NCBI GenBank assembly: GCA_019429005.1
Contig: JAHYJR010000003.1
Location: 7,961 to 71,960 of the forward strand
Source of the DNA: Nanobdellati archaeon
GTDB lineage: Archaea; EX4484-52; GLR71
Reading direction: 5' to 3'
DNA length: 64,000 nucleotides
The notes below the pieces were generated by a model. It was given only the letters and a program-made list of their open reading frames with translations, searched no databases and was not told the origin of the DNA. The position numbers and the translations under genes were made by a program. Shown here in pieces: positions 7,728-53,780 of this stretch (its first letter is position 1; each line of letters starts with the position of its first letter).

Positions 7728-7731
7728 ATAT

Positions 7732-10700
7732 CTATACACCTAACTTAGTTAGATTTTCAGCAAGAGAATTGATATATATTTCGGCCATCCTAAATCTACC
7801 TTCTTTAAGTTTATCTCTTGCAAGTTTTAATTCAAGACGTATATCTGAAACATCCTTACCTTTCTCTGAAAGGATATCAATCTTAATTTCAAGATTATCA
7901 AGTTTTGTAGTAAATTCTTTATACCTATTAAGATCTTCTTCAGGTATCCTATGTGGACTATGCATTGTAGGCCTGAAATTAACAAACCATGGTTTACCAT
8001 CATTATATTTAGGATTCTGAACCATAGCAACCCCAATAGCTTGCCTTGATATCCTCTCAGCAAATTCACTACCATACTTGCTTTCAATTTTATTTATATC
8101 CTCTATACTCTTTGTATTAAGCTGTATTTCTGTAAGAATATTACCTGCAACAGCCTCTTTGAAATCTGCAGAAACCTGAGAAACCATTATAAGACCAATT
8201 CCCCATTTACGGAATTCACGACAAGCTTTCTCAAGAGCAACATATCCACCTTTACCACCATACTTTTCTAAAAGTCTATGAACTTCATCAAACACTAAGA
8301 ACAATTTAAGATCTGCAGATTCTTCCCAAGTCTCCTTAAATATTTTAGCAATAATTCTCATAACAGCTTGATCATACTCACCAGCTTTAAGCTTATCAAG
8401 ATTAAATACAGTAATCTCACCAGGATTCATATATTTCTTGAAATCAACATCAACATCAGGTGTTTCAACATCATATATAAGTCCTTTAAATGGCCGTGCA
8501 TCTGAAGGTTTCATATTAAAGTTAGAATATTTTGAAGTCAAATTTACATCTTTACAAGCCTTCACAAATCCAGTCCACTGACTTGTAGGATCAAACACAA
8601 CAACAGGTATCTTCTTAAGAAGAGCTTCTTCAACAAATACGCTCGCAGTAACACTCTTACCACTACCTGTACTCCCTGCAACAAGTATATGTGTTGTTAT
8701 GTCAGTTGGATTAAACCAAGCTTTAATATTTGTCTCTGCAACTTTTCCAATATCAAAATTAGTTTCAGATTTCATTGGAAGTTTAGTATAATCAACTGGG
8801 AAAACATACCTTGCTTTACTCTTCTTCTGTTTCTGATACCATGTGTATATATACCATGTAAGCATTACAGTTGACAATAAGATAATCCAATATCCAACGA
8901 TTCTGATTCTCATTGTATTCCAAAATGGTTTCATAATTGTAAATGCACTTGTAGCTGAAGCCATACGATTACCTTCATAAGTAATTATTGCTTCAACAAA
9001 ATAATTGCCATTCTCTAACTCAAGCTCTTCAAGAGCTATAATATTAATTGACGAATTTGACGAAATAACATTAAGATTTTCTGAAAAATTATAAACCATT
9101 TCAGAATTAAAATCTTTGATAAGATACAATACATCAACATTAAAATTCTGCTTAAAACCTTTATTATATATAATTATTTGAGTCTTAAGAGTACTATCAA
9201 CAGTCACTTCTTTAGGCATAACATCAAATACAACATCAAGGAATCCTGCACCACTATATGTTACAACAAGCCTAACAGGCATCCTCTTAACAAAACCATC
9301 ACCATCTAAAAGAATATCTCCTGAATAGGTACCTATTTTGGTCTTATTGCTAACTTGTAAAAATGCCCTATTTGAAACAGTATCTCTTGATAACAATGAC
9401 GTTTTAGCTAACTCAAACCGTATGAATGGTTTCAAATTATCAGACACATCAAAAACAAACTCACCAATATCAAGATCCATATTATTTGTCACTTCAAATG
9501 GATATGTTCTAGATTCGCCTGGATATAATATTACATCATTCAAATCAGTCTCAACACTGAAAGGTCCTTCAACACAATCAATTTCACAATTATTTTCATT
9601 TTCACCAATATCACAGATATAATTACCACAATATGAAAAGACACAATCTGAGAAACATGTGAATTCCTCACCAAATTCGCAAATACTATTACCACAGACA
9701 GCACAATCTTCAGCACAATTAAAACCATTCTCACCAGCAGTACAACTACCATCACCACACACATTAAGTGTTCCAGCTGTACTTGCCCCACTAGTTGAAG
9801 GCATAACAGCTTGCTTAAAACAAGAACCACAATATTCAACAGCAGCATATGCAGATGTCTGACTAGATACATAACTAATCTTATTATTAATCATATCAAC
9901 ATAACTTTCATTATCAACTGAAATAACTCCTGATTCTACACTTTGTTTCTTTATCCAACCTGATGAACACACACCACTCTGAATATCCCAATTAGCACAA
10001 CGATACATATCAATATTACCTTCGTAACTGATTGATTTTCCTGAATTTGAATAATCAAGAACAATTGTCATATTTGAAAAGATCATATCTGTATGCACAG
10101 ATATGGATGAAAGAGCTCCAATCTCAGCTGTCCTTTCAGGTAAAGATAATATAGACGGATCAACATAACCAATAAAGAATGGTGACTCAACAGATGTTGT
10201 ATTTATAAAACTTACATTACTAAATAATGCACTCCCATCAAAAGCACTAAGCTTAACATCATATAATCTCTGTCGCATAGTCTTATTATAAACCGCCGTA
10301 GAACTATTTTGTTCTAAACTTGAAAAATGATCAAGAACTAGATTTGTACCAGGTCTATAAAATACAAAATTAACAGCAATAGGAATAGCCGAGATATAAC
10401 TATTTGCACCATAATCTGTACTATAACCATTAAATCTTAATTCAGGATAAACATCAAAAATGCCCATCTCTTGAGACAAAAGACCATTAGTATCATTTGT
10501 AAAAAAGATAACATCGTAATCACCATAACCATATGTCTTATCAAACATAGCATCCCAACTATTTCCTGAAGATACATTAAATTGAGGTATATTATATCTT
10601 ACAGATGTAGGCTGGTATGATATATTAAGGTCATCAATCCAAACACTGCCTTCATTTGATGATACATTTAAAATTGCAGTACAGTTCCCAACAGATGTTA

Positions 10701-13700
10701 ATGTACATGAATCAAGATATGCTTCTAATGCAGATGTTTCAAGTGCTATATCAATCTTACTAGTATTTGAAAATTCGCCATCATAAGACCATAATACGTT
10801 ATCTGTACCAACAAGAGTTATTAAAATATTATCAGGAAACGGTGGTCCACTAACAGCCTGAAGTGTCATTGTCATATTTCGTATCTGCACATATTTACGC
10901 ATATCAAGATATACCATATGAGACGGTTGTGAATTAAAATTAACTACAACTGGCGATGCATTCACAAAGTTTGTAATTGTCTCATTTGGCATAAGTGTCA
11001 TATTAGGTGTTATATAATCTACATAAGCCCATACTGTATCAATACCAGCTTCATCTGTCACATTTATATCTAAAACGATAGTCTCATTTATATCTGCAGA
11101 AGATATATCTATATAAAGTATCTCAGGTTCATCTATATCTGGAACAACCTCAATTTGTATTGTTAGATTGTCCATACACCTTGATGCATTTTGACAAAAT
11201 GTCCCTGTAGCATTAAAAAGAACAACTGCGGTATATGTTCCAAATGACTGATTCAAAGGAACGCCAACACTAACAGATACAACATCATCAAATCTCTTTG
11301 TTATGCTTGAGATAGATACAGGTTCATATGTTAAAGACCAGTTAATATCCATATTTCCAGATGCTTTTGAATATTCAATAACCCAAAGATCTTCATTACC
11401 AGTTGCTCCAATAGTTACATTAAAGATTTTTGTTTCACCAGGAACAAGAGATGCGGTTATATTTTTTGAAGATGGTACTAATAAACTTAATTCTGGACTT
11501 GACAATACAATAACATTAGTCAAATTAAATAATGATGGACCTGGATATGTATTTGATTTTAACCATGAAATAATTCCTTTGATATCATGTGTATTTACAG
11601 TTGCATCAGCTGTAACATTAACTGTTAATACTTTATGACATATTGAACCTGGCGCTATGTCACCACAACTTATCTTATAGTTATCAACAAACGTGAAATT
11701 ATTTGGTACTAAAATTATGCCTTGAGTCGCATCAGGATCATATGCACTACCATCACGATATACTATAATATCCGAATCAAACATTGTACCATTACCAATA
11801 TTTTCAAGATCAAATGTTATATTAAATAGATATGTATTCAATGTTGAAATTTCATTTACATATTCTCTATCAGGTGACTGATATAAAACATAATCTGTAG
11901 TTGTTATAATTGTTATGTTTGAAACAAACACATTATCTGCATTAGGTCCATATACATCTACCGCATAAACACTAAGATCATATAATCCTTGAACCATATT
12001 ATTGAACGGGTCAACAGGTAAATAAACTCCGCTATATTGACCATCTTTAGTATTACCTGATATAAGAGTCAAATTAACTGTAACAAGATATGCACCTTTA
12101 GAAATTGTAGCATACGCATATGACATCATAACATCATCTGAAATGTTCGCAAGAATTGTAATATTATCCTTATTTACTTCAACTGAAATCTTATCAAGAG
12201 ACGTACCATAAATAATTGGTGCAACAAGATCCTTTACATCCGTTGTATCGTTAACACTAATTACTGATGCATTATAATACAATGTTTGATTATCTCCTAT
12301 TGAACACATCAATGTTGCAACACCAAGTTGTTCAGGTATCCAAGAGAATGTTGCATTACCATCTAAACCTGTTGTTTTTGAACCTACAATAACATATCCA
12401 GGTATTGTTGAATTATAATAATAAACAGATACAGGATAATCTTGAACTGACATATTATTCGATGAATCTTTAACACCACATTTCACATTATTGACAACAC
12501 CATAAACCATAGTGCTTGATATATTGAACACAGGTTCTGATGTACCTATTACGACCATATCTGTCTGAAGTACATTTGAAAATCCATATAAATCTTTTGT
12601 CGCATTAAAATATATTGTATAATTACCAACTTCAGCATTATCATCAATATTCCATAAGACATCACAATATGTCATTGAACCAGTTGAACAATTATCTATA
12701 AAATGTAAAGCAGACGTTGTCAAATTTTCATAATAAAATGCAACTACAGAATCTGTACCAATATCCCCAGTTTCTGTAGTAATATTCGCTGTGAAATTTA
12801 CAGTATAAGGTGTAGCAAATGCATCATCACGATATATCATATCAGACTGTTTTGATAGATTGATATATACCTTACCTAAAACCCTTATCAATTTAAAATT
12901 TTCTTTTAGACTTGCAAAATAATATTGAGTCATATTATCTGTAATATTACACATGAATGTATGATTTCCAGCAGTCTCATTTGTTGCATTCCAAACAACA
13001 TTTGCATAACCTAATGCATCTGTATAATTCATACCAACATCAATTGATTCATAATTACCTGTGTCATTTTTCACAAAGAACATAACAGAATAATTAGCAA
13101 GCACTCTTGAATCATTTGCATCTGAGACTTTACAGGTAACATCAATTAAACCTCTTTGAATATCTACTGATGGTGAAACAACCTCAACTTTTGACCATCC
13201 ATATAATGTAATATTTGTTGAATTTGTATCCTCAACATTATAAGGTGCAACAACTTCAGCTGTAAGTGTATAATTGCCAGGCAACTCATTATCAGCAACA
13301 TACCATAAATCATTCATATTTACAGTTGATAAGATTGTTTTTTCAATAACACCATTTGAAATATTCCAAGTTACAACAGGTGAAATTACAGAACCACAAG
13401 TATTATTGAACGTTGAATTAAGTGCCTGATTAAGACTCTTATATATATTATAATCTGTAGCATTTGGATAATCAATAATAATAGATAACACATCAACAAT
13501 ATCAACATTATATGATGTAATATTTAATGGAATCTTTGGCGAATAAAACATATCTGAATTTGAAGTTATTGAAACATTCACAATATATGCACCAACTGAA
13601 TCAGTACAATCTGTAGACCATGTAATATTACAGATTCCAGTTCCATTTGTTTTAGTGACTGTAACAGACTCACCGGGTATTTCCCAAATACAATTATAAT

Positions 13701-40700: not shown

Positions 40701-43700
40701 CATCAACACCGTCGGCTTCAACATCCATTCTTGGTTGAAAAGGGAAATTATTAAAATTATATATATATATTTTTTTATTTGAATCAGATGACAAAATAAT
40801 CTCATTACCTGATTCTATAAGATGATCTATTACAAGCATATTATAAAAGATTTGACCATTAAGAGACTCCTCTCGAACATATAATAAATTCCCATCACTA
40901 TCCAATTCATAAATTATATTTTCCACAAGATATATGATTTCTTCATCATCAGGTGTAAATGAATCCACTTCAGATATTGATACAGATATAACATTATCAT
41001 TAGTATGCACATTATTAATATCTGAATAATTAGTCCATATAAGATCACATGTTGAATTAAAAAGACTTAAATTTTCACTTGTACCTATTATTATTTCAAG
41101 TCCATCCAATGAATGTATCAAATCACCAATATCAAAAGATAAAATCGAACTAGAAACAGTACAAGTTTCAATTTCAGAACCATCAGTATAATTTAAGATA
41201 CGAAGAACAGAACCTGTTGAAAGTATAATATTTTCATAAGTATCATTATTAATATCATCAACTTTTATATCAGTCACTTTACTAGTAAATTGTTTCCCCC
41301 AAATTCTTTCAGCAGATGAATTAACCAATTGAAGTTCTTCGCCATCACCAGGTTCATGTCCAAAAATAATACTAGGGCCATAATCTGTAAAATTATAATA
41401 AAATACACTCGAACCTGCATCAGTACCAGGAGGATCATAATAAAAATTCCTACAAGGTATTATAGGATCATAAGGACCTAGATTAACAATACAAGTCATA
41501 TTATACCCATCAACACCCTTATTTGAATCTCCTGAATTAATCACAATTAATTCCATATTATCATCAGTTAAATTAATATTACCTAATTTAAAATCAATAG
41601 GCTCTAAAGCACCGGGATCAATCTTAAATATTGGCACATTACCAACTGTTGATTCCGAATTAAATGCCCTAATATCTACAAGTGTACTTACAAAAAAATC
41701 ATAAAGTGTTGAAGATGCATTAACTTTACCACCAACCAACATCTTTGTCCAAAATAAACCATCACCACCATTACTAATTATCTTAGGTGCCATCTCTCCA
41801 CTCAAAGAAACACTTGAATTGATAATAACAACATTTGTAGGTATTGTCACATTAACATCTTTATATATCGCTTCATTATCATAAGCAACAACATACGAAT
41901 TCTTCACTTGCGTAAAATTAAACCCAAATGTATACGGATCCAGAGCATATGAAAACTGAGTAACCTCACTATCACCTAAAGCCCATGCAAGATTCTTTGC
42001 ATAAGCAGTCATATTACCATAGGTAAACCCAACAAGATGCTTTCCAGACATGAGCTCATAATAAAGAACTTTACCGTGTTTATAATCCCATGAGATTGAT
42101 AAATTTTCACCGTCAAAAGTGGGATTAAGAACAACCCATTCTTCAGAAGCATTATCATAATAATAAAGTCCAGCAAATTCAATCCCTTCAGGATTATAAT
42201 TATCTATATAAAGTATGTCAGATCCCGTCGTATCAAAATATATTGTCCAATTACTTCCAACAAGCGGATATGACTGAATATTTAAAACAGTTATTGTAGA
42301 TTCAATAACAAAATCCTGTGATGATAACTGTGGCACATTCCAAAACATCTTATCAATAAGACCATTTTCATTTGTATCGACAAAAGTCACATTAAATATT
42401 GAATTTTCAGTAACATCAATTTTCTGACCATCCTTGAACCAATAAAGACTTATTTTGTTACCACGAACTTCAGATATATCCGAAAATGCTTGAACATCAT
42501 GATAATGCATAGAAACACTACTTGCAATAGTCACATTTTTTGTCCATCCAGACTGATAAGATTCAACATCACTTTCAAGAGAATATGGTGCATCTGTTTT
42601 ATATTCAATCTCAATAGCCTCAAATTCATCTGTAATAATTGATGCAACCATGCTCTGGATTTTTACAACCTTATCACGAGTCTCTGATGTAACTATAGCT
42701 TCACTAGGTACAAGATCATCAGATGAAATATTTTTTGATTTTCGCACCTTTCCTTTTAGTGTCCAACTAACAGGTTCACCAATAACAGCATTATTTTGAA
42801 TAATATCAAGATCTTGAACATCAGGCGGAATTATTTGTATTATTGTTGAAGAACCCAAACTTGATAAGGTATTCAAAGATTCGTTCCCAGCATAAAATGT
42901 TTTTATCGTATAAAGACCAGGACTTAAAGGTGATGTATTCCAAGATAATGTTGCAACACCAGACAAATTTGTATTGTTTATACCAAGAAGATGACTATCA
43001 ACATAAAACTCTAATTTTTGGCTAGGTATTGGTGTTCCATTCTCAAATGACAAGTTTGCCATTATTTTTGAAATTTCACCTTGAATTACTTTAACAGGAT
43101 CAAGAATAACATCAGTTATCTGTGTAACAATAGGTGCAATATGTTCATTTGAAATTATAGTAACCATTATTTTTTCAAAATAAGCAGATAATGTATCAAT
43201 TGCCTCATTACCATAATATGATAGATTAAAGAAATGTTCACCTTCATCTAAAAGAGATGCATCAACCGAAATCAATATTGTACCATTATCATCTGTAGCA
43301 TTCAGACCAATAAGAGTACCATTAGTATAAGCATACATTTCTTGATTAGGTATTGGTGTGTTGTTATCATACACTAATCTTGCTTTGATAAAAGCAAAAC
43401 CATCTCTAAAAACAACTCCAGGTGTAATAATAACATCAATAATACGAGATATAAATGATTTTATTTCAATCTCAACAACATCTGTAACATTTGTGCTATT
43501 ATCCATCCCATCAATAGAAATAGACCCATTTGTAGTTTCATTCAGATTATTTGTGATATTAACAAAAATTGTATCATTTACAATCAAAGTCCCATTAATA
43601 ATCATTGTATCATTAATCTGAATAGTACCATTAATAAGAATTGTATCATTGACTGAATCATCATCTGATGTCAAATTATCAGAAACATTAATAGATAAAT

Positions 43701-44115
43701 CATCTGTACCATTAACAGTAACATTTAACTCAAAACTCTCATTAAAAAGTATTGTATCGTTTAAAGTAGAATTTGAAAATGTCTCATTTTCAGAAATAGT
43801 TTCTAGAACAGTTGAATTCTCTTGACTCCCATTCAAAACATCAGCAGTTGATGTATCATTTGAATCGGTTAAATTACTTGTAACATTGTCTAAATCAAAA
43901 GCCGTTTGATTATCGGACAAAATAGAAGACTCGTTAGAAAGTAAAACAGCATCTAAATCAGCAGTTTGATTAACGGACACAGATAAGTTCTCAGAATAAA
44001 CAGTAGACATAGAAGAAATAAAAAACAAAAACATTATAGATAACGCTAATAAAAACTTAAAATTTAAGTAAAAAGGCTCAAACCTAATACTATTTCTATT
44101 AACCTTATTATCCAT
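7732..44115 (-). CDS. Giant 12,128-aa surface protein (36.4-kb single ORF). It has a signal peptide, a hyper-glycosylatable ectodomain built from tandem Ig-like super-repeats and Cys/Asp-rich metal-binding-like repeats, a membrane-proximal triple Cys module, one TM helix, and a C-terminal cytoplasmic HerA/VirB4-like ATPase.
   Basis: Uninterrupted frame in a low-GC genome. Likely ATG at 44115 (the listed TTG is at 44118). Signal peptide/anchor FLLALSIMFLFFISSMSTVYS. C-terminal TM IVGYWIILLSTVMLTWYIYTWY (about nt 8842-8905). ATPase motifs ILVAGSTGSGKS, FLVFDEVH and FRKWGIGLIMVSQ. The last about 480 aa are about 85% identical to the downstream paralog. Confidence 0.9.
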   Translation of the reverse strand: MDNKVNRNSIRFEPFYLNFKFLLALSIMFLFFISSMSTVYSENLSVSVNQTADLDAVLLSNESSILSDNQTAFDLDNVTSNLTDSNDTSTADVLNGSQENSTVLETISENETFSNSTLNDTILFNESFELNVTVNGTDDLSINVSDNLTSDDDSVNDTILINGTIQINDTMIINGTLIVNDTIFVNITNNLNETTNGSISIDGMDNSTNVTDVVEIEIKSFISRIIDVIITPGVVFRDGFAFIKARLVYDNNTPIPNQEMYAYTNGTLIGLNATDDNGTILISVDASLLDEGEHFFNLSYYGNEAIDTLSAYFEKIMVTIISNEHIAPIVTQITDVILDPVKVIQGEISKIMANLSFENGTPIPSQKLEFYVDSHLLGINNTNLSGVATLSWNTSPLSPGLYTIKTFYAGNESLNTLSSLGSSTIIQIIPPDVQDLDIIQNNAVIGEPVSWTLKGKVRKSKNISSDDLVPSEAIVTSETRDKVVKIQSMVASIITDEFEAIEIEYKTDAPYSLESDVESYQSGWTKNVTIASSVSMHYHDVQAFSDISEVRGNKISLYWFKDGQKIDVTENSIFNVTFVDTNENGLIDKMFWNVPQLSSQDFVIESTITVLNIQSYPLVGSNWTIYFDTTGSDILYIDNYNPEGIEFAGLYYYDNASEEWVVLNPTFDGENLSISWDYKHGKVLYYELMSGKHLVGFTYGNMTAYAKNLAWALGDSEVTQFSYALDPYTFGFNFTQVKNSYVVAYDNEAIYKDVNVTIPTNVVIINSSVSLSGEMAPKIISNGGDGLFWTKMLVGGKVNASSTLYDFFVSTLVDIRAFNSESTVGNVPIFKIDPGALEPIDFKLGNINLTDDNMELIVINSGDSNKGVDGYNMTCIVNLGPYDPIIPCRNFYYDPPGTDAGSSVFYYNFTDYGPSIIFGHEPGDGEELQLVNSSAERIWGKQFTSKVTDIKVDDINNDTYENIILSTGSVLRILNYTDGSEIETCTVSSSILSFDIGDLIHSLDGLEIIIGTSENLSLFNSTCDLIWTNYSDINNVHTNDNVISVSISEVDSFTPDDEEIIYLVENIIYELDSDGNLLYVREESLNGQIFYNMLVIDHLIESGNEIILSSDSNKKIYIYNFNNFPFQPRMDVEADGVDEWSYDGRLRYDVLEYNTTSSISNRLSTASISECPINETCNIIYSWFANYSGDKKGSIVIEDTTFNYTYNISEAAQSNMEAYWLWNGSFSRNISLNDSIAKNTIVIEGVPVYLDLIRVNQKYPAKALNITFENLSRVLFDVNVYDIQMGSGAVNCSINKDFYLNSQEKCDIEDFTVKSSGVNVTDLWNYSQFYFWDNSMPVEVVAWSNDTDYVKYREFAEKNVTIFRNPNGSTETQVFYNLMFTTSIDDNDTINIIDQPYIKLLNWDNVGNPATYYLNTTNIGLYTDQPSGVKGLDLTLFNQIGCSNPSFIPQKSFYTQKFCNPSSTTTYYNYQVINESVGRYNTVSDICSDNAYSIGEGACIWGCTDSVYTDCWSSGPRYGVVDHDVNDYLCLEGPEKGNIKSNCVYLIDYWENPTGSCCGAKSSIRTCGTWSDIDYLNTWFICSEDTNGNGVIDFVKVVQPRTGNATGDILLNQNVTYAIGGRYNYPPVITATTVSPSEFYWNDSVMNFSVSYNITDYENDYVNLTFSIRNYLSQSITIDSSVIDYVTFNVSVNKSWIGTSCDSKHNYNLCEEKSISFNLTYIDYNVTGTNDSDGGNGFHDWFGSDGLHLTDDDLVLINDTITNPSNEWYPRILSHDSEITYLDAPSEIFRNDISSMLSVRIYDNYTETYPENATCRYRVLLTNMSSDNNLSIEGPAREVLSDSNGYCNYSMFSSDVKYRNTGCVGSYCSSYQTRGNVTWSVEAAGPLYNSSKTYYNITVWSWASVSATSLPQYVYEDVTYTLSCNVFDYINNEHISGYNVTFLNNGIVLGVSVTNSAGIATWLWSPVGGTENVIQCQIFDFPEVYLLVWGGAGNSTSGTGGGGGDGSGPGGVTPQCNDGIDNDNDGTMDWQDNNNNSGLPADPDCTDQYDNDEGGTFGSGTPQCNDTWDNDFDTFSDIDDPECHTDFNASNISSYDPFHESEAIAQCNDGIDNDGNGLIDWPEDFYGCSSADDIWEWSPECNNGFDDDGNGVADFINDTWGCDDANDTREWSPECNNGFDDDDDGYVDYPADFGCINETDDSEQGIIVTTIILINISMDNNLIYRDDAYAISKGYPYNVTFNVNATDNRSQILNETTVVFTNTADSEYLGNCTTDNTGTCSFLWNPSIYTSVGNISIQYDATKLFYILQIEYGSVEVKGILHLNLTSEDMGYYRDGDINVFAELYDEANLSVSAYGLSDYNCSWEISPFDSTGTTLTGTDSVCNYTWSDGCSIGVGSYLVNISYMNQTYYKYWDIFDDNVMGNITVIDNLTVFIDSPNQNSEIYYNYNYWLNSTIIESVCSFDVTNDYQVSWIYADNFSNNGVIVDFGSSYANYSWVADISGRGPINITANVNGTYYPGLFTNMTQLMLYRFSNVGGMLINPSEVTRNDVIGVYCEVTDLNQSVIVPSGYNVDFYVDNTYEYTNISNLTSFAIWSWDTTGYYGGWHNVSCLINNTRQAPYYYNVSSGSNSTIGVVATQLNISKLEIGSPWIYRTDIIPYQTYIDIYVNTTDEEGYSVFVEGAIVSIYGPTGSCGNGQYINETVDHCNCTTDSVGYCSIDFNANDTIFPKLYDFYVNASRPLWISSQTVTASLDIKGSIFANIINPVSDGDIRYKGLSHYLNSSVTTDAGVPLLDSEVNVTWKNSLNVTIGSIINSTWSIPVGTVPFNETISIYVNKTGFVPIVLERYVEIYGWVAVNVTEISPAPDVDDVLPRDIINITCMVYDDNTTTGISGYQVNISDNNGTVDTLIATLFTNSSGYVNYTWNSYFVNLGSHNITCTILENKTLNYNVSFSPSKRYINFTDNNPPIITIHSPINATYTTPLVLLNFSVNEYVDWCGYSLDGAANITIPDCNVTNMTAIYDVGQHTVTVYVNDSESNVGNSTVFFSIDVGVEKNRVFYEDGTTINLTLDAGVPGLDLFANFSLIDSDYGPSHNESYYDAGGGIYYLTYTISDDATNTRSDGGYTIFINSSDGRLRNATLHLNNDWSTWDEISNAFKCTGDIPYKYFMEESCLKNDYDFAFKKYSGTYTEFECNDASLLEKDYLNGLYYPTDGLDCDDADCAGIVYSCPPGSNGDRTKDGGQFVSFGFMDMVFGLLSLTPTCSGGVCQATIDGIQDTKVYYTENVALGGNLTVRFVGPVGNCGSSDNRTVQFMLGVGTQPLPSGLVLPGGSNVFINNLSESSSFTPYVIELGTSEVTFLVATDNVSYCGNLDMTMNIIIPNETGLIGIHTIAVSRDLQIDLTNQINLTIEIGTTATGMLYEHNITDGCRDRTALNQYQEDNDLDYLVDCADPDCWDPGCSGADCVDYRGFSDISLSNSSDYGQGLCQPAETTCYDLVDNDYFNVSGADCQDINCDMRQGNYTDTLHLCEYRQELNCTDGFNNDQYQLKDCDLVATADRFTDPVYGFLQGTGNAEYDCQVECRTLGIVPSQEIGENCTDNIDNDMDYFQMQPGSSYSSGVRNMSIGAGIDCRYNNYDADCNMTAINDSHSPIPFGDCQLLWEMNCTDGFDNDQDWGVANIHFAGYSNLNGSDCDDYNCRGLGSCPVTESCDFACASSGANTCYDFIDNDLDAYNTNGTIKNVTVGAGIDCNWIANDYDSDCHLSYVNVTGSVFRCEIGTELNCTDGYDNDFDLANLTRNKPNYTANYGGLDAADCDDYDCAGATYLNGSYICSNNPYTLFESVCNDTTDNDLDYYFDCADSDCIGSMGPQGVVCAFNEYPEYCRDGGDNDGNDPDADSIYEVGKNGTDCEDPNCHKQFGLCNVCPEFENVSVDACSDGIDNDFDRTFDVDLKDCKESECNGFAGPDGKVCEFNIELSCDDGVDNDDNGFIDCLDDACAGTPSCPSDEYGPNMCVDNVDNDDTPESPGTDADCSDATNDCDLTIHCQTNDVIFKWESTASKVYIDYDYVVRRGENWTIRFTNKTEMVSSVSFSVGIAASPLPADFNVNGANSVKSVLTGPSASEFTKGISTGIFFAESTSYPSTQALDLTYNIELPITDAIVDNSFYTFKIAGNIDGAEEMFISVYVLENNKPIINNISFVSRMAESGALYGPDVTVKVNTSDNVLYNSGIHHCEFKLNTTGWYTYSTVDVRDCEFTFTGLSVGSYNLSVRSVDGAYNINETSMVFDVLIPPILQGFYNITDLEYPGRVRYDDDENITINVNFTSSVSTFSASPTGCLVKFNNISTGVSQLTSTIALSVPVAGKAVCSGEINISSLPRNSGRYDITVEVNDTLLSTGITDAQEFWSCPIFFDSYVGRYRCMTACEDQEPPVIENVSVELDPIFRGSNQTIYATVYDDGIGLGGSIEAGWPKLFVKEADDLGNVYLHEYPYTTTDGAGNYTWNVSINVTELPGVWYYKIEAKDTIGVYTKTDPYNFTVIGRIYITIDSPVNPWDIYHRTETVSLNSTVTDENGVIFDDSDVTLNWFNITNAMINTSINASWALDNLFVLGANSVNATGNKTFYATNSSVKNIWIYGWSGINQTAPYNSTKTRSNIDVICHVSDLNSSENIQDYPVMFWETNSSGTTVYLGSTLTDSSGNSTFTWDTTSHNVGTYIITCNITDNATVYYNVSIPETSYNITLTGLLNVNVTSSESVVYRYNSGVPNETIFEANVTDVFSDNLVSGANVSFYYNSTENSTLYYLGNCMSVDGLCNISWNPADDIYPANYSIYFNATRQYFNDSSTDYIPLKIKGLLIINMTSEGNIYYRGLPSLIEGGLVDAGGVSVTGYPLSGFNCSWIINSTITSSLTDINGTCNMTWNSDCTHILGNYETNLSLTATGSEFWDIFDDNDVENISLIDNLTIIIDSPLNNSIYHKDDDINLFSTVKDSCGFPSNSHSIKWYISADIKTVEDTVYSVFWYDYQTLPVTIKVSDPVNAFYPNQVQNITYIDIYRYTEIKNISFNPASEFVPGSIVNVSCLIQFNDTAINSQVNIDPLYDVSFYLDDVLQSVEKANLSEYAMWQWDTTSVGGGEHEVKCNITDSVLLYYNASYLYEQNSTTMAVTGLNVTNIIFDQDPIVRNDSYSPHEVQISSKVVTSDSGVPVLNAVVHIYLPSGNCTDIDGNVNEINSTNKVCDCITDLSGDCYIKYNATEDILPNNYTVYINATKTSWSDSLTETYILGIWGNLETNITNVYETQIFHRGSNESLQSYTVNESDGNITDDVTLTWVWTPSVTSDQSGSGTLWEILNDYQLGPIMIEALAEKTYYVFDIEARNVFVYGWSNVTLVEPAYDVHNRNETLLIKCNVTDQNTTDVVSNLYPVQFTEDNGTVENVLGTNYTVNGIAMYSWNTTEINPGEYTLRCKILDNDTLYYHATDVWNVSSKSINMSGFLSVSAYPELLWIYRNDSFVNYNTTFVANVLDDNNNPVNLVTVTFLNYTGDVVGTCLTNTTGGCVMTPAWNPSDTYVPGLYNITYYAYKTFYENSIYHNLTVEVRGKYKVSLSSEDILYRGENYWFNGTITSENGDELTSGLYLNWTIINQTGSGVTLILNTSNITDTATIDNAQNIGSYWLNVSVIKSYYDDINTYDVPVTSINKSVDVYGRAVVEIISQSDTSILRTDNVTFIARVYNYYDASDNVSDYVCNWRNDEGDQFNSTTNNLGLCNYTWDSGCSYVVGMHDLNVTIYTNSTLYYSPKAGGYESDNTTVALNGTLNITMDKPEVSGVPKEIVYRYDYVTLNSTVRDECSQIILGTTVNWTSTNITSNVEIIDGAGTTLTYWDLSSPSYHKIGLFNVNATVNKTYYVSGNDTQNVLIYGWSKINLVLPLSDSYQRTELNISCNVKDNHSSENITNYPVYFWDSIDNGLTYAPIDTIYSNLTDAYGNAIYIWNTSMSIVGDHRLKCNITDNATLFYNETEMNESVVDITLIGDLYINITSLINSVFYRNDTFNPYFANITVRAFDENDANIMSANISFQYSDDNDSLSMIYFANCTTDATGKCNIIWNASDTMTPDDYYIFYNGSHPFFNNSLIENTTVQIRGMYHIDNIFYPLDDYSGTEKYNNRVYKDETHYFRSILSFENGTQFSASESPLYMNWWIFNNATSEYTNISVIVNDTSLKLFDVSNHSLGNHYIYVNTTKEYYDEMPTYLDTASKNKSVVIFGRSVVNITVAPTLVIRGTDALFTAFVYDYYNDTGIADYNCTWQTSEGDVFVNKTNATGYCHYTWSTDCADNATIQNVTVLIGEELSLFYNPLQDISLNTSNTSLEVRGDIDSYIISPNAMIDMPLQKDTIVPVSVQVFECGRQIDDVGVNVTLWDGSTYVEWWNYSSVGVSGEYNTTKYIDISHALGNFTIHVTSGRTYYTTNWTSVDVSIWGWSNITFISPLSEIYFRNDTINLICYVDDVSNSSGLENYFVTFIDNNGTDTSTIGTNFTNSSGYATFLWNASESSASPHNVTCNITDNSTQYYTAYQVESNKAMLDLRGYTFITLFKSESHIYRNDSFYPNFTELYVVVIDELGLFLNNSFVSFSYYNGTDNIFIDNCLSNETGNCAVIMDVPDDISPSDYIISYNATNLPQYQPVQKNNTIEVRGKIKLNITYPTYRIFRNETSDLNMTFITENGEYINLTDNTEWLIVNGTDLSETHITNTTFLNSSLTMPYHVLGNHILKIRVEKEFYDSIDTNDSVTIYNNSIEVWGRLLIEYNSSVSTTDERGDVVQFAVRVHNKYDSPQIDVDYNCIWARDDVGGTSSVSVNNGICYYNWTTDCSTWVGGHDLNATIYDNATLFYAVDTVTANYRSFTNDLRGNISKIDILIPNSSMYPLHKNDTVSLIANITDECGYYIPDNTHLGDVAINWTLERPSFFEVVNDTGNGTDSWYIKQSHDLGNFTLFANVSHSYYGNNFTSIGDVQIFGRSDVSFINPFEGNITKYDRSSIVNLTCNVTDRDTNALLNGYQVKFWDNFTNVSGTFVTLINTTQTSVGIAYYEWNISTIPTGDHIVTCNISDYPLINYTAFKTEAETTINLKGFLFVDCVNQTVSKDWVYRMGDSISYSCNVSDENQMPIKDATIWLYTPGAPGVVQSGLTAVDGKVIFGWDPDNTINPSSYTLYYNATRGVNYYNSITKNVTSRVLGKINATIISPLPASSYYKGDPVSLNMTMVLDNGTVVDESFVTSILWYLNGDMANVIGNSQNTTWNVWNNLTNLQDVEVYAFKDSYYFDITSNPTHENIHDSVSIGIWGKSAVEFIAPLPTEKFARGLNITYIARVYDADNITGIYNYTCNWTFNGMNNITFTNESGFCNITWNTMCPVVDISSDSDTIGNHIASIVIPNETYMYYTTDLGNSTNNTNLNLTAPLNITIVQPNMTAFFKTETMFLETIIVDECMDTVVGSQVQWNLERTGFDSVINNSENGTYLIPNDHKLGQFDLNVTTQLVNYNMSYDFKPVEVWGWSFVNLSNITNPKYPLENPQQFEKSLINITCDVKDANMTDPVNVTYPVEFWYTFNYTDYFIASDNTSLSGVTSAVFDARYVPGGIYTIKCNISDYTDVYYNTTIDFEMIQDIVILGVLNVSYNISDNKIYRNDTFTPSQTVLFANVTDEDWPINGTNVTYYYNTSSNSQIYIDSCITNESGVCPVSVIWNPSDTIEPFNYSVIVIVTKPLFDYDTKYEKVETRGRFNFTITQPSINLRLYQNDSYMFNTSILSENGDVLYVLNDTKWYVNSTLLENGNTYDATNVTVPYNQTLGESIFKVDMLKEYYDSLGSPSIDNDDYLVSKEIPVEVWGYSVVEFYPGQNNSIYPLDSSSILYGVQVYNYYNNTKFISGFDCEFNITESVTPILINETMGSSFCYYTWDTDCTNNDYNNIGPNDVIVKIYETPSLFYTPRSGYETSQIVTTLNGSLNVFFKASDGPYVDASVTRIVHRDDTVNLFVSVEDQCGDDLLIASPSVVNWSLVPEPSVGTLNISGDGLSDVWNINPDFFEIKNYTLRANGTQQYYVSDYDDLEISVWGYSDVTIVEPVLNVSKTYERSELNISCYVNDANVTNPALLDLEGYPVNITYSLITATINESGFINYSVTDSDGYFNFTWDTLNIKGGLYTIYCNITDNSTLNYTASRVVSSVQLNMTASMEVDLQNVTETMIYRNDTLPASGPYSTKFISKVIDVGSSVDGATIEYWYNDTNDVFQLIGTCITNITGYCTNPVVWNPVATIVPNNYNIRYKATHTLTTYENSSEYFTNVLVKGKIQINITSPYPNEVVFRQYPLDLTWFNVTVTDENGNFVYDTQNNWSIVNVSLGLITPLIDTLSQNISVVVPYHSLYDNVVNLTVWKQYYEFMGSNASVLDANVTVDVWAKSVVDIVQEYDSRERGENITYIAKVSDKFNASLLILGYNCTWDYDGQQKLTPTNASGYCNVTWLTGCSNPGAGADEGDNQSIGQHTTKVNISSTSMLNYEPNAPNDNNDETYTNLTGALDVTIVEPSYYLIQRNDSTSLISEVRDECGNTVSASVVNWDIYNQTTSIWYESVGSLQNDTWNVTYNHNLGNYTMNVTSSKDLYNSTMSSKIIAVFGWANVTLNLPQSASYVRNTTILMSCNVLDLNTSQNIESYPVEFLNMDKYSSTYSIIGTNVTNLTGDAIFSWDTSLYNAGSHYVACRIADNYTLYYTAPINTSNNITLDLKGKLYINITDIEYPVIYRNDSFSPFTTNITFNITDELNMTISNATVTLNYTLPSWSPMEKSIGVCNTTDISSGLCEILFNINDLESPENYTIIASAENLDYTSQSDVFESIIVKAKTDIIVIAYPNGSTDNYYGMRLYRNETHNFTIDILDENSVGFMNATSINWTILNFTDLSDVTSISNTTDISIDDSLSKTQDLGQYWLNATVEKIYYDDIITNESVSSINMTVEVWGRAAVNIINSYTSKYRGDSDIIYIAKVYNYNSVSDDGLSDYNCTWRTDDGVEVVTVTNSSGYCNFTWITNCSNWATGDNWVGNHIINVTIYEDAPKYYTPEVSEYSKQTNLILRDTLNVTILSPNASIYELNKDTTVLMDLNITDSCDTLVYSNSYRSTDPVVNWTVYRNGWTDLSVENGNGTDLWYINGTYPIGNFTLNATAMHPYYDTHSYEIYNMPIWGWSVINLTSPIVDMLFDRNNTIPIYCNVTDNHTNESISEYPVYFWDSLPGFYDYTNLSVSNVNLTNGSGLAVYYWNASQVQVGEHIVKCNITSNSTLNFTSWAPRAEATQGIDLRGQLYSVAESQEAMIYRNDSFIPFKTMLNVTVTDENTNLVVNSTVAFYYTNLTSLQNITIGLCNTTVAVPGYCNITWNISYNAEPGDYQIYYNTTAAYFKPAVIGNFVVQVKAKFNASIITPVFDQRLYRDIIYPLNATIIDENGLAVVQSSPDWIFWNLINRTSMSQVIEFLNTSIVLDSQIINMTQALGEYYLNLTAQKQYYDDTDDNNSITWSMFNVSVWGRAGIEYIAPVNYSTYNQLDNLTFIARVYNFHNYSEGLEGYNCSWTLDGRTEVHKTNASGYCNVTWYTDCNTVPGAGDDVDTVGNHTIGVEIFEDAGKFYTPEPTVDSDLIISGITSIINGTISTFDILGSSRTSGSVNPPYGYPDIIERPEVHKKDLVIISVVLRDSCNNLLDESIVTNDYLYVDGSPKSSTVTSGDTVTLSWPVGSISIVGNVSLNISLASDGFFTSYVSTNKTVYSWVEVGYSNSEPKSGYYSKGMIDFKCNVLDNPTPAILVKDYPVKFYITNDTVPSNVTDASGIAYTSWNSSAIEGTRFNYTCNITDNATLYYHALPNQNSFDSEIKFVTVEFDSDPKKIYRNDLYSPFESFVNITVFDDNATALNNTNVTYYYFNLTDLQNHTIDSCITNENGTCGVLWNITDIAEVGTYTLKYLALYEGTPIFMAGETSESVDVYGRYGINIIGIADGLIIFKNELVYLNSSVTDENLAEINIAGVNWTFELNGTGSQESLFTNTADTWWTVPVGKSHGAYIINVSATEDYYDNINIETPFISNNVSVYVWGHSAIETVSNATNVTRMDNITFTAKVYDYHNSSVIPDYNCIWEIPGESVTVTKTNGTGICNITWSTDCTDSVGAYIVNVSITSNSDMFYSPKIPLNITSYNVDIVDVLSIIIDYPNATDYNIYKSLNQALNSTFNNTCGSVISPVVTWNISNGVIEKTILSTVNMNDLWYVADNELPGNYTLTAEVVAPYNVEDTNSTNITLYGWSKVEVVSPSVDIQRGLIDVTCKVSDANDSRVLANYSVMFFVKNDTGNYESIDVGMNYTDALGYANVVWNATNETAGNHTFMCNITDNMTQYYFASLKENFKLIRVLGKVYINLSKQSDMIYRDDAFATPYTVNFTANITTETGDIGTDSVVAFYYENLTTSALHFIDNCSTGSMTYCDVLWNIDDNAEVGNYTIYFNATKDLYGFSNVLQTDMVVIGTSEPVFNISSTMVYGVVNNVKCGVKDSSNNMSVQDYPVSVYYYNSTIPGYVIVGSKTTGLDGNATFSWIPEQLGVATLMCSIGDNQTLYYNASVISVNDTTDVKDLVAPIIYGTSLDKISVEVNKDNITILANISDDVMMSYAYATISKGAYLVTVNLTLISGNTKDGQYSGVYLPVDPFNNMVQGLYDLSVYAVDVYGPNADNVFVSNITIITTTDYVLYQSPDREYVNEISTLNTYLFNITFDLENIGNGTMFDSDIIVYRDGSAYDPDATQGIILVPNNFTFVDNYKISCGDIAPGSICHKVLTVNVTADATVNTHDIKGIISWLKSNTYPGPSLFNLTNVIVLSSPELSLLVPSSKNITASLVPGETKIFNVTIGATGNEDLWVIEYSKASGNMDINWSLTYEPVSISSITKRFDDVVSVSVGVPLNQSFGTYTAVVLFNATGTFCQNASRCMDNLTIQIEVVPDIDEPEILYIDISSADINETIVLDINVTDEAGIDTVWAYVDYITPNMTLMPNETITNFVNASPVVVNFNSQPSHMVYLDMRKYVQIRNMTMTLQAVSGPPFPDNILITLVGTDNVLWSYDGEFSNTSKIDIALETSALEAYLDSCTLTSVGNCTAILNVSSNEGSVWIDDLNISYQPTSVRYNIPQFNVSSGNSWDAMFDKTYGYGDYDVIFFTNDTNGLLSQEMGIFDVYPELRFNGYSTDYGANSYISAIPIAVNFVFYRPGTNLVLDHFSSLEQNSSTAVYNKTMRQRLYDVKLSAFDGSALFSNVSFINTTSVESPFFIGYVDPSILSLPERTAEIGALSSISVHTDMIFSNMTIVLDYSNSGKSISYEGNIDMYRCANWDIQSGVCSSGWIKKQSVESGVISVDNESYVDMINNKISYVSSQTSAYAAVEYCGSCFKQAVMPSTSGASTAGTLNVCGDGSCTAGENGFNCAEDCAVCGNSICEFGEEFTCFSDCVFSYCGNYICDIGENENNCEIDCVEGPFSVETDLNDVILYPGESRTYPFEVTNNMDLDIGEFVFDVSDNLKPFIRFELAKTSLLSRDTVSNRAFLQVSNKTKIGTYSGDILLDGDGFVKRMPVRLVVTYSGAGFLDVVFDVMPKEVTVDSTLKTQIIIYNKGFKQNFNVDVLYLIKDFNSEMVYNFSENLNVISSNSSINIIALEELELENGNYFVEAIITYEGNRMASATSAFTIMKPFWNTMRIRIVGYWIILLSTVMLTWYIYTWYQKQKKSKARYVFPVDYTKLPMKSETNFDIGKVAETNIKAWFNPTDITTHILVAGSTGSGKSVTASVFVEEALLKKIPVVVFDPTSQWTGFVKACKDVNLTSKYSNFNMKPSDARPFKGLIYDVETPDVDVDFKKYMNPGEITVFNLDKLKAGEYDQAVMRIIAKIFKETWEESADLKLFLVFDEVHRLLEKYGGKGGYVALEKACREFRKWGIGLIMVSQVSADFKEAVAGNILTEIQLNTKSIEDINKIESKYGSEFAERISRQAIGVAMVQNPKYNDGKPWFVNFRPTMHSPHRIPEEDLNRYKEFTTKLDNLEIKIDILSEKGKDVSDIRLELKLARDKLKEGRFRMAEIYINSLAENLTKLGV
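12900..30200 (-). repeat. Intragenic tandem super-repeats (approximate bounds). Dozens of Ig-like modules of about 100 aa in 4 recurring types, arranged in super-repeats of about 450-900 aa.
   Basis: Recurrent signatures in the translation. Type D: V(W/Y)GWS...C.V.D....YPV.F....G.A...W.T....G.H...C.ITDN.TLYY, at least 12 copies. Type C: C.WT.......TN.SGYCN.TW.T.C, at least 10 copies. Types A/B: G.L.V..........YR.D with cysteines G.C.T...G.C.I.W. Confidence 0.6.
32000..33800 (-). repeat. Cluster of at least 9 MopE-like Cys/Asp-rich putative metal-binding repeats (C.DG.DND.D....DC.D.DC)
   Basis: Translation shows NCTDGFNNDQ..DCD, NCTDGFDNDQD..DCDDYNC, NCTDGYDNDFD, CNDTTDNDLDYYFDCADSDC, CRDGGDNDGNDPDADS..DCEDPNC, CSDGIDNDFD..DCKESEC, CDDGVDNDDNGFIDCLDDAC, CVDNVDNDD..DADCSD, DCADPDCWDPGC. 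On the nucleotide level this is GAT/AAT-rich low-complexity sequence that creates spurious antisense ORFs. Confidence 0.6.
37490..38150 (-). repeat. Second cluster of CxDGxDNDxDG Asp/Cys repeats (5 copies), preceded by a GC-rich Gly/Ser tract (GGAGNSTSGTGGGGGDGSGPGG)
   Basis: PQCNDGIDNDNDGTMDW, QCNDTWDNDFDTFSDIDDPEC, AQCNDGIDNDGNGLIDWPEDFYGC, SPECNNGFDDDGNGVADF, SPECNNGFDDDDDGYVDY. The GC-rich island at about 38085-38150 is atypical for this genome. Confidence 0.55.
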
Positions 44116-44141
44116 CAAATTAACCGGATTTTTTAGTGTAA

Positions 44142-45281: not shown

Positions 45282-46328
45282 TTATTTAACAGATTGTGCT
45301 GAAATAGGCATATTTTCAACCACATACACATCATCAAACTTTACAAATAAAAGATATACAAATGACAAAATGCCTGTAAAAAACATCGCAATACGGAAAA
45401 AGAAAAACATTGTAAATGCAACCATCAAAGGATAAATAAACTTAATAATATCAAAAAGATTTGAAAGCATCTGTAAATTATTATCTACGCTGCTAGAAAC
45501 ATCTAAATCATCAAACGTGGAATCAATTAAATCAAACTGTGCATCGATATTAGCTTTGACATCCTTATCAATATAAACCATACTGCTATTCAGCGCAGAA
45601 AAACATTTCTGACGTTCCAAAGGCGTAAGTCCATAAGATTCATCAAAAACAGAGTACAATAAAGCCTGCTCAAGACCCTCAAGCATCGCATAATTTGCAT
45701 TTTTCTGAGACTCAATGGCTACACTCTGAATATCACCCAAATCATCTTCAGACATATTAAGTGTTGAGGTAAGCATAGAATCAATTTCATTTGATGCCAA
45801 AAGCGGATTATTAAAAACATATATTAAAAGAGCAAATGTAAAAATCAATGAAAACACAGAAAATGCCTTTGATAAAGCCACCCCTGCAAGTTTCTTATAT
45901 GGCGGTTTTTTATAAATATCAGAAATTTTTGCACCTTTAAAAACTATAAAAAATGAAATAAATACACTTAAACTTGCAACAATATTAAAAAACGTAAATC
46001 CACCAAAAAATAATGTGAAAATAGATAATAACAAAGGTGTTATAAGTATAGAATAATCGGATTTTAAATCAGCTATAACAATCTTAAAAAATATAATAAA
46101 AGGTATGGGCACAGTCAAAAGAAACATTATAAAATAACTGAAATTCATACCAAATGAAAAATCACCAGCAGACATTGCTGTAGAAATATTTGCACTAGGC
46201 GAGATAATCAAATCAAGATTAAAATGTGATAAGTATAAGAAAATAAAAGATAATATAAATGTAAAAACAACAAGCATAAGACCTTTATTTTTATCCATAA
46301 TGACAACCATTTTAATATTATTTATCAT
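45282..46328 (-). CDS. Polytopic membrane protein of unknown function. Its start overlaps the stop of the upstream IPT-repeat surface protein by 4 nt.
   Basis: At least 6 hydrophobic helices. 4-nt start/stop overlap with the 2,110-aa gene (translational coupling). Confidence 0.6.
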   Translation of the reverse strand: MINNIKMVVIMDKNKGLMLVVFTFILSFIFLYLSHFNLDLIISPSANISTAMSAGDFSFGMNFSYFIMFLLTVPIPFIIFFKIVIADLKSDYSILITPLLLSIFTLFFGGFTFFNIVASLSVFISFFIVFKGAKISDIYKKPPYKKLAGVALSKAFSVFSLIFTFALLIYVFNNPLLASNEIDSMLTSTLNMSEDDLGDIQSVAIESQKNANYAMLEGLEQALLYSVFDESYGLTPLERQKCFSALNSSMVYIDKDVKANIDAQFDLIDSTFDDLDVSSSVDNNLQMLSNLFDIIKFIYPLMVAFTMFFFFRIAMFFTGILSFVYLLFVKFDDVYVVENMPISAQSVK

Positions 46329-53510: not shown

Positions 53511-53652
53511 ATAAATTATAGCTTACAAGGTATAAAAATCTATCTTAAAGAACAAAAAATAATCTTTAACTTATAGAAAAAAACATTTGTCAAAATCAAA
53601 TAAAAAGTATCCAAAAAATAGACTAAAACAGTTTAGAACCCCTTACTAAAAC

Positions 53653-53762
53653 AGCTAAAAACAGATACAAAAACGACTAAAAACATATACAAAAACGACT
53701 AAAAACATATACAAAAACGACTAAAAACATATACAAAAACGACTAAAAACATATACAAAAGC
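53653..53762. repeat. 5 x 22-bp tandem direct repeat (gactaaaaacatatacaaaaac) with phased A5 tracts, between the S-layer gene 3' end and the minD start
   Basis: Units at 53675-53696, 53697-53718, 53719-53740 and 53741-53762, plus a degenerate copy at 53653-53674. A-tracts recur every 10-12 bp. Confidence 0.9.
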
Positions 53763-53780
53763 ACATTAAAAACTAAGATA

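Follow-up and report, generated by a model that had tools for sequence, protein, structure and literature searches.

The DNA analysed here, called the window, is a 64,000-nucleotide stretch of contig JAHYJR010000003.1 (positions 7,961 to 71,960) in the assembly GCA_019429005.1 of a Nanobdellati archaeon. Its minus strand carries a giant open reading frame (ORF), the gene of which is very probably, both in identity and in architecture, an intact gene for a type-I membrane protein of the SPEARE family, belonging to a non-halophilic member of the DPANN archaea. The giant heads a conserved three-gene module, made up of the giant itself, a short paralogue and a coiled-coil protein, which recurs across DPANN loci. 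The coordinates of the features are listed in Table 1.

The giant ORF occupies positions 7732..44118 and has 12,128 codons, the terminal stop being the only one in the translation. Given the base composition, a stop is expected with a probability of about 0.081 per codon, i.e. once in about 12 codons, and the probability of 12,128 stop-free codons is about 1e-443. The remaining five frames across the same interval contain between 646 and 1,986 stops each. The uninterrupted 36.4-kb frame described in an earlier note, which was made from the sequence alone and left the strand unstated, is thus real, and a chance origin is excluded, as the note had held. The listed start of the gene is a TTG at 44118. 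The second codon, at 44115, is an ATG, so that the actual length of the protein is probably 12,127 residues. The predicted mass is 1,352 kDa (~1.35 MDa), excluding glycosylation.

The giant exceeds every published SPEARE protein in size. Those on record (PMC6642349 and PMC10266531) are NAR1_1133 with 5,998, AQV86_04780 of SG9 with 8,553, BNXNv_0298 with 8,880 and SVXNc_0300 with 9,409 residues. The last of these is the largest published member and has been termed the largest protein of any cultivated archaeon (PMC10266531). Halomucin has ~9,000 residues, as cited in PMC6642349. Only a few archaeal proteins, chiefly from Asgard archaea, exceed 10,000 residues (bioRxiv 10.1101/2023.11.21.568195). 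The giant therefore surpasses most reported archaeal giants, as had been suggested, but ranking it among the largest prokaryotic proteins was an overstatement, because bacterial proteins of at least 30,000 residues are on record (bioRxiv 10.1101/2023.11.21.568195). The giant is also longer than each of the best 150 of its 399 relatives in a library of 1.84 billion proteins, the maximum among these 150 being 7,878 residues. The exact 12,128-residue protein is apparently absent from both protein libraries searched, in which very long proteins are perhaps under-represented.

Repeats are prominent in the protein and nearly invisible in the DNA. Tiled self-BLAST of the protein shows a super-period of ~550 residues across residues ~4,400-10,600, and phmmer finds ten near-complete copies. 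There are 9-10 copies of the super-repeat, of 525-575 residues each, and nine aligned copies are 28-36% identical in amino acid sequence to the reference copy. Hidden Markov models (HMMs) of the five sub-domains tile at least 69 beta-sandwich domains, covering 6,764 residues, and the whole protein is estimated to have about a hundred Ig-like domains. At the DNA level, Tandem Repeats Finder (TRF) reports just four short arrays (six overlapping rows), the largest of 239 nt. No exact DNA repeat within the ORF is longer than 28 nt, and the top blastn self-match is 75% over 142 nt. The statement that the gene is built from tandem repeats is thus right for protein domains and does not extend to the DNA. 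Because the repeats have almost vanished at the DNA level, an assembler cannot collapse or expand copies. The GC content per 2-kb bin is between 0.28 and 0.36 over the whole window (~31%), with a uniform skew. In view of the divergence of the copies, the lack of any exact DNA word above 28 nt and the uniform composition, the idea that copy number and length depend on the assembly is not borne out.

The sole appreciable DNA tandem repeat of the ORF lies at 37561..37799 (a 102-nt unit, 2.3 copies, 76% matches by TRF) and encodes a small Cys-containing motif at about residues 2107-2186. It is the single site at which slippage could plausibly alter the length, and then in frame only.

The giant is collinear, from head through arrays and stalk to the transmembrane (TM) helix and ATPase, with complete relatives of 2,958 (P0247), 2,909 (P0261), 7,852 (P0160) and 7,878 residues (P0167). 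This argues against a chimera, which the earlier note had named as a possible refutation. The extra length of the giant is due to expanded middle arrays and to a Cys/Asp-rich insert. That the ORF is an assembly artefact, whether chimeric or mis-joined at repeats, or a decaying pseudogene still open by luck, could be suspected from its origin in a metagenome-assembled genome and from the missing record of the exact protein in the collections searched. Such an explanation is barely credible in the face of the chance probability of the frame, the small extent of DNA self-similarity, the uniform composition, the order of domains shared with complete homologues and the intact catalytic motifs of the ATPase.

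The C-terminal end of the giant (residues ~11,790-12,128) matches the DUF87/HerA central domain of Pfam with an E-value of 9.8e-12 (45.9 bits against a cut-off of 23.2). Weaker Pfam matches are to AAA_10, HerA_C, TrwB, FtsK and ResIII (7e-4 for ResIII), of which AAA_10 is just above its cut-off (28.3 against 27.5) and TrwB_AAD_bind is below its own. The nearest solved proteins by sequence in a PDB search are HerA helicases (4d2i, 2.4e-6). Across 40 aligned family members, the Walker A motif G-x-T-G-x-G-K, the Walker B D-E, the arginines R242, R261 and R264, and also Ser and Gln positions, are invariant. An AlphaFold2 (AF2) monomer model of the TM helix, ATPase and helical tail has a predicted local distance difference test score (pLDDT) of 90 and a predicted TM-score (pTM) of 0.84. 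The top folds found with Foldseek are hexameric HerA translocases (SIR2-HerA, Sulfolobus HerA and HerA-NurA, E ~1e-12), followed by the conjugative coupling protein TcpA, DndH, STIV B204 and FtsK. The Walker A and B motifs, the conserved arginines and the RecA-like fold that define the FtsK-HerA superfamily are thus all found in this domain. By sequence and model, the ATPase is assigned to the FtsK-HerA superfamily of motors, with its catalytic motifs intact; it is predicted to be nearest to HerA and, as a new finding, closer to it than to VirB4/TraG.

Membership of narrower families was considered and rejected. The NCBIfam models of HerA reach 21-37 bits against cut-offs of 800-970 and the PADLOC matches do not exceed 55 bits, and no NurA, SIR2 or DUF4297 partner lies among the neighbours; the domain is not a HerA in the strict sense. 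Type IV secretion system (T4SS) models, covering the VirB4/TraC and VirD4/TraG/TraD ATPases, score 26.6 against 567 bits for TraC, 15.3 against 521 for TraD and 18.3 against 325 for conju_CD1110. Partner genes are also absent, with no T4SS component (VirB6/8/9/10, pilin or relaxase) among the neighbours scanned. The top NCBIfam match is CedD (NF053655, "DNA-translocating ATPase", 1e-14), but at 54 bits against a cut-off of 600 and with no Ced partners detected, a place in the Ced DNA-import system was likewise discarded.

More than 96% of the giant is an adhesin-like ectodomain. Hydropathy identifies two membrane segments alone, the N-terminal one at residues 16-41 and the helix IVGYWIILLSTVMLTWYIYTWY near the C-terminus. 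The protein is predicted to have a type-I topology, with ~11,700 residues outside the cell. It has 671 N-x-S/T sequons, where ~227 would be expected, with nearly none in the cytoplasmic tail, and the ectodomain has a pI of ~4.05. Pfam finds weak Big_3_5, Big_1 and MG2 matches in the ectodomain and little else. When the nine super-repeat copies were supplied as an alignment, AF2 modelled one super-repeat as an all-beta structure of about five sandwiches, with a mean pLDDT of 79.5. The top PDB matches of the model are the strings of macroglobulin-like (MG) domains in complement C3/C5 and in alpha-2-macroglobulin (E ~4e-17), with a TM-score of merely ~0.2 because the inter-domain geometry is different. 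Membership of the A2M/C3 family was rejected, since the giant has neither a thioester nor a bait region; the MG-type fold is all that the two have in common, and there is no match to an A2M, TED or thioester family.

The head of the giant (residues ~920-1,395 and ~1,540-1,720) recurs in about a dozen family members, within their N-terminal part. As a single sequence, the head region gave no match in the PDB, and a propeller emerged only with the family profile. That profile matches PQQ/BamB-type beta-propellers, the best being the designed Cake, Bagel and Scone series with E-values down to 1e-50, and further matches are to 3hxj, to BamB and to chains deposited as "Cell surface protein". Pfam beta-propeller families are matched by seven of the nine profile members, the blades of the giant itself being too diverged to be matched alone. 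Both the short paralogue and the other long members have conserved the stalk (10,619-11,738). The Cys/Asp-rich region between the two arrays has no Pfam match even at E <= 0.5 and probably consists of disulfide- and metal-stabilised modules.

There are 41 cysteines in residues 3501-4000 of this region, and its fuller motif reads C-x-D-G-x-D-N-D...D-C-x-D-x-D-C. It resembles metal- or Ca-binding cysteine-rich surface modules.

Table 1. Features of the giant gene, its predicted product and the two genes that follow it (window coordinates; residues are those of the giant).
Feature	Coordinates	Strand	Basis
Giant SPEARE-type gene, 12,128 codons, probable ATG 44115	7732..44118	-	ORF listing, translation, stop counts
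Signal peptide/hydrophobic segment, residues ~16-41, then VYS-EN	43987..44118	-	Hydropathy, sequence reading
Asn/Ser/Thr-rich N-terminal region with two weak Ig-like (Big_3_5) domains, residues 45-418	42865..43986	-	
Conserved head module, residues ~920-1395: diverged PQQ/BamB-type propeller blades and a conserved ~230-aa domain	39934..41361	-	
Second conserved head module, residues ~1540-1720	38959..39501	-	
First beta-sandwich array, residues 1847-2962	35233..38580	-	Self-BLAST, phmmer, HMM tiling
Cys/Asp-rich "C-x-D-G-x-D-N-D" repeat region, residues ~3400-4050	31969..33921	-	Sequence reading
Main beta-sandwich array, residues 4430-10618	12265..30831	-	phmmer, AF2, fold search, HMM tiling
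Nine complete super-repeats (525-575 aa, five MG/Ig-like domains each), residues 5311-10241	13396..28188	-	
Membrane-proximal stalk with Ig-like domains, residues 10619-11738	8905..12264	-	
Three CG(D/N)xxC...NCxxDC Cys-rich repeats in the stalk	9559..9759	-	
Single transmembrane helix IVGYWIILLSTVMLTWYIYTWY, residues 11740-11761, then QKQKKSKAR on the cytoplasmic side	8836..8901	-	
HerA-type (FtsK-HerA superfamily, DUF87) P-loop ATPase and C-terminal helical hairpin, cytoplasmic	7735..8841	-	
Walker A GSTGSGKS	8653..8676	-	
Walker B LVFDEVH	8278..8298	-	
Short paralogue, 1,393 aa as listed, probable ATG 7727; same stalk-TM-ATPase module	3558..7739	-	
Coiled-coil partner, 571 aa, cytoplasmic, no TM segment	1709..3424	-	

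The C-terminal module has 123 homologues in a word-indexed search, most of them 550-1,300 residues long, and those with a source name are all from DPANN archaea (Nanohalo-, Aenigm-, Woese-, Nano- and Altiarchaeota). A word-indexed search with the super-repeat was empty, and an orphan ectodomain was considered. This idea was dropped when an exhaustive HMMER profile search gave 399 proteins (130 at E <= 1e-30), many of them giants; the earlier miss was an artefact of sensitivity. The same ATPase stands at the end of 34 of the best 150 of these relatives. Members ranging from at least 2,000 to more than 3,750 residues are found in contigs that bear the label Aenigmatarchaeota or Nanoarchaeota, as well as in archaeal contigs without a classification. 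Fourteen genomic loci (L001-L014) were recovered for context, the SPEARE locus of Ca. Nanohalococcus occultus being added as L015. An ATPase-terminated ORF of at least 3,750 residues runs past the retrieved flank in L002, L003, L007 and L012, and one is complete at ~2,950 residues in L004 and L006. A scan of metagenomes gave no close relative of the repeat array, and a scan of genomes gave no relative above ~72% ATPase identity.

SPEARE proteins were named in Nanohaloarchaeota by Hamm et al. (2019, PNAS; PMC6642349) as proteins of up to 8,553 residues that are mostly extracytoplasmic and have a C-terminal TM segment. The conserved intracellular part was also reported from Woese-, Aenigm- and Micrarchaeota and from Altiarchaeales, and the SPEARE protein of Nha-C was seen by proteomics with 81 peptides (PMC6642349). 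Reva et al. (2023, Front Microbiol; PMC10266531) described ~75 tandem immunoglobulin-like (Ig-like) domains, a TM segment, a "VirB4/TraG-like" ATPase and a coiled coil, with a second ATPase gene downstream, and reported no protease or endonuclease in SPEARE proteins. Across its final ~600 residues, the giant shares 42% identity with the tail of SVXNc_0300 of Ca. Nanohalococcus occultus (E = 8.6e-151) and 45% with SVXNc_0299. The ectodomains of the giant and SVXNc_0300 are 23-24% identical over ~800 residues (E = 5e-32), and the 512-aa gene after SVXNc_0299 is a match to the coiled-coil partner (E = 7.7e-26). The homology of tail, ectodomain and partner makes the locus in the window a bona fide SPEARE-type locus.

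The giant is very long, mostly extracytoplasmic, and has a C-terminal TM helix followed by a cytoplasmic end. It has tandem Ig-like domains in the ectodomain, an intracellular portion homologous to that of the published members with the same weak ResIII/DUF87 Pfam signature, and, directly downstream, a second ATPase paralogue of 1,393 residues, as described by Reva et al. (2023). It departs from the description of Hamm et al. (2019), by which SPEARE proteins carry at least one laminin-G domain. Pfam gave no Laminin_G or Concanavalin-clan match, even with ten short pieces at E <= 0.5, a test that operates at the sequence level only. Pfam searches of the ectodomain, cut first into large and later into smaller pieces, also found no peptidase, nuclease, toxin or glycosidase family. 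The lack of peptidase and nuclease domains is no mark against membership, because Reva et al. dispute such domains in any SPEARE protein.

The probable ATG of the short paralogue sits 4 nt past the stop of the giant gene. The paralogue is 55% identical to the giant over 738 residues, and the two ATPase domains, compared over 7735..8841 and 3561..4826, are 78% identical. A long-then-short ATPase pair is also found in L001, L002, L005 and L008. When the ATPases of these loci and L015 were compared, long and short copies within one genome were 78-86% identical, against 50-72% between lineages, with L002 and L005 (64-68%) as exceptions. In the close relatives L001 and L008, long-long and short-short orthology is kept (94-95%). 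The likeness within genomes suggests gene conversion, repeated duplication or the co-evolution of partners in a ring.

In 11 of the 14 related loci, and likewise at L015:11917-13455 in the SPEARE locus of N. occultus, the ATPase gene or genes are directly followed by a homologue of the coiled-coil gene. The only family similarities of the 571-aa partner are coiled-coil matches to SMC-related proteins, Rad50 and LmuB, far below the cut-offs. No description of this gene as part of the SPEARE system was found in the available text of PMC6642349 and PMC10266531, and that the coiled-coil partner is a conserved part of the locus is new.

The cytoplasmic proteins of the window are neutral to basic (pI up to 9.5), as opposed to a pI of 4.2-4.8 for the proteome of Ca. 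Nanohalococcus occultus, and the organism that carries the giant gene is therefore not a salt-in halophile. A survey of non-hypersaline Nanohaloarchaeota found no ORF above 9,000 nt and just small SPEARE-like genes (PMC9563170). The occurrence of giant members in a lineage and a habitat type from which none had been described is new.

The flanking genes are archaeal and include those for an S-layer protein (PF05124), PAN, Kae1, ThiI, ADP-PFK and LeuA; no tRNA is present in the 64-kb window. Nearly all genes from 1.7 to 56 kb are cell-envelope genes on one strand. Upstream of the giant, on the same strand, lies a 2,110-aa surface protein (46325..52657, minus) that has a signal segment at its N-terminus, carries an IPT/TIG domain (1.6e-12), has a hydrophobic anchor near the C-terminus (residues ~1936-1968) and lacks an ATPase. 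Large ORFs of 1,250-1,830 residues occur near the SPEARE-type gene in L002, L003, L005, L006, L010 and L011, and some of them have beta-sandwich domains in common with the giant. Between the 2,110-aa gene and a TtuA-like gene is a 348-aa polytopic membrane protein with about six hydrophobic segments (45282..46328, minus), just upstream of the giant; the 348-aa protein has no Pfam or NCBIfam match. Directly upstream of the surface-protein cluster, at 52803..56323 (minus), are a ParA/MinD-type ATPase of 235 residues and an S-layer protein of the Methanococcales/Thermococcales type (PF05124, 1.7e-22). Two more ORFs without a Pfam or NCBIfam match, a Lys/Asn/Ile-rich one of 595 residues (56995..58782, plus) and one of 323 residues (61931..62902, minus), are placed amid the housekeeping genes PAN, ThiI and Kae1.

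SPEARE proteins are the leading candidates for the means by which DPANN archaea fasten onto host cells and obtain resources from them. They have so far been described essentially from a few genomes of halophilic Nanohaloarchaeota. The full architecture, larger still at 12,128 residues, is now found in a non-halophilic AT-rich DPANN lineage, and the conserved unit is a three-gene module with a motor nearest to the HerA DNA translocases. The locus offers testable hypotheses on ring composition, substrate and partner binding, and a wider comparative set for the family. For genome annotation, it cautions against splitting or dropping huge ORFs of this kind, which are real. A literature search combining DPANN with HerA/DUF87 found no paper on this protein family.

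The giant is likely to be a SPEARE-type tether for host contact that is coupled to a HerA-like polymer-moving ring. The two parts of this reading differ in strength: a role in adhesion is probable, whereas a role of the ATPase as a translocase is put forward tentatively, as possible rather than probable. The proposed mechanism builds on what is established for FtsK-HerA motors and for adhesins with Ig-like repeats. Glycosylated and extended, the ectodomain would form a rod or tentacle with a length in the hundreds of nanometres. If each beta-sandwich adds ~4 nm, the 69 domains detected would by themselves span ~280 nm, which is comparable to the cell. The propeller head and the Ig-like arrays would find and bind the surface of the host cell. 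The cytoplasmic domains of the giant and of the short paralogue would oligomerize as a HerA-like ring beneath the membrane, docked to the coiled-coil partner. At the site of contact, the ring would then spend ATP on moving a macromolecule across the membrane of the symbiont, with DNA or some other polymer as the most plausible cargo. Mixing the short paralogue into the ring would relieve the crowding of six giant ectodomains.

Several observations weigh against this proposal. A ring of six subunits, each with 11,700 residues outside the cell, would be sterically awkward, and the short paralogue is absent from many loci. No pore-forming or channel component could be identified. The propeller of the giant itself is visible solely through alignment to its homologues, and Pfam scans do not detect in it the domains of laminin-G and protease type that SPEARE proteins were claimed to have.

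Three other readings give the motor a different task. If the giant were a purely structural adhesin or tether, the ATPase would anchor or remodel it through the coiled-coil partner, by clustering, tension or turnover, in a manner similar to the link between integrins and the cytoskeleton. The dominance of the adhesin-like ectodomain, the long cytoplasmic coiled coil of the partner, whose similarity to SMC and Rad50 is that of coiled coils alone, and the lack of an identified channel protein would fit such an arrangement. It appears unlikely, since all catalytic residues are strictly kept across phyla and the closest folds are nucleic-acid translocases, which points to a processive motor. To our knowledge, there is also no precedent for a HerA-type ATPase serving as an anchor. 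The T4SS-like secretion "straw" proposed by Reva et al. (2023; PMC10266531) for homologues of the giant, in which the giant would bind the host and a VirB4/TraG-like ATPase would export effectors into it, seems quite unlikely here. The ATPase does belong to the same FtsK-HerA superfamily as VirB4 and VirD4, with weak AAA_10, TrwB_AAD_bind, TraC and TraD matches and with TcpA among the folds. However, the T4SS models remain far under their cut-offs (TraC 26.6 against 567 bits, TraD ~15 against 521), HerA proteins are the best matches by both sequence and fold, and the scanned neighbours include no other T4SS component.

A device for defence or DNA restriction, either as the "RE" in the name SPEARE or as an anti-virus system of the HerA type, in which the cytoplasmic domain would degrade or exclude incoming DNA, is very improbable. 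The weak ResIII match (7e-4), the PADLOC matches to HerA/mad8 of up to 55 bits and the SIR2-HerA defence complex as the top fold could be read in this way. Yet there is no nuclease and no SIR2, DUF4297 or NurA effector in the neighbourhood, defence HerA proteins are soluble and lack fused giant ectodomains, and Reva et al. found no endonuclease domain in SPEARE proteins (PMC10266531). Assignment to a defence system was accordingly rejected, the PADLOC similarity to HerA being at the level of the superfamily only and no effector being present. A bolder reading, which we regard as speculative and rather improbable, is that the giant, the short paralogue and the coiled-coil protein form a DPANN-wide, uncharacterised machine for intercellular transport with a mixed HerA-type ring. 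The ring, beneath the symbiont membrane and docked to a coiled-coil scaffold, might contain, for example, one giant "tentacle" subunit and several short subunits. Where symbiont and host touch, it would reel in or pump DNA or other polymers out of the host. If true, its mechanism would set the machine apart from both T4SS and Ced, and the 78-86% identity of long and short ATPases within a genome would reflect the co-evolution of ring partners.

Among the closest known systems are the published SPEARE loci. The features that they have in common with the locus of the giant are a signal peptide, a huge Ig-like ectodomain, a TM segment near the C-terminus, a cytoplasmic ATPase and a terminal helical or coiled-coil tail, with a shorter ATPase paralogue and then a homologous ~500-aa gene directly downstream. 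The giant differs in being ~2,700 residues longer than the largest published member, in its AT-rich genome (~31% GC) with a non-acidic proteome, and in the absence of a detectable laminin-G, protease or toxin-like domain. It has in addition a diverged PQQ-type propeller head and a Cys/Asp-rich module.

The HerA translocases (Sulfolobus HerA 4d2i, HerA-NurA, SIR2-HerA and DUF4297-HerA) are the top PDB matches of the giant by sequence and fold and share with its ATPase the DUF87/HerA central domain, along with the motifs of Walker A/B and Arg. The ATPase of the giant is only 13-19% identical to them. It is anchored to the membrane by a TM helix where HerA has a soluble N-terminal HAS barrel, and the locus has no NurA, SIR2 or DUF4297 partner. 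The ATPases of conjugation and DNA transfer (VirB4/TraC, VirD4/TraG/TraD/TcpA, CedD and FtsK) are likewise P-loop motors tethered to the membrane by one or more N-terminal TM segments, and are linked to the giant by remote sequence matches (CedD 1e-14, TraC, TraD) and by fold (TcpA, FtsK). All of these scores are far under the cut-offs, however, the partner genes of those systems are absent from the locus, and the ATPases themselves have no giant ectodomain.

Long strings of beta-sandwiches on the cell surface are also found in halomucin of Haloquadratum and in bacterial adhesins of the Big/invasin type, and alpha-2-macroglobulin and C3 have the MG-type repeat fold in common with the giant. 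Unlike the Ig-like adhesins, the giant ends in a cytoplasmic motor ATPase and lies in a conserved operon with its paralogue and the coiled-coil gene.

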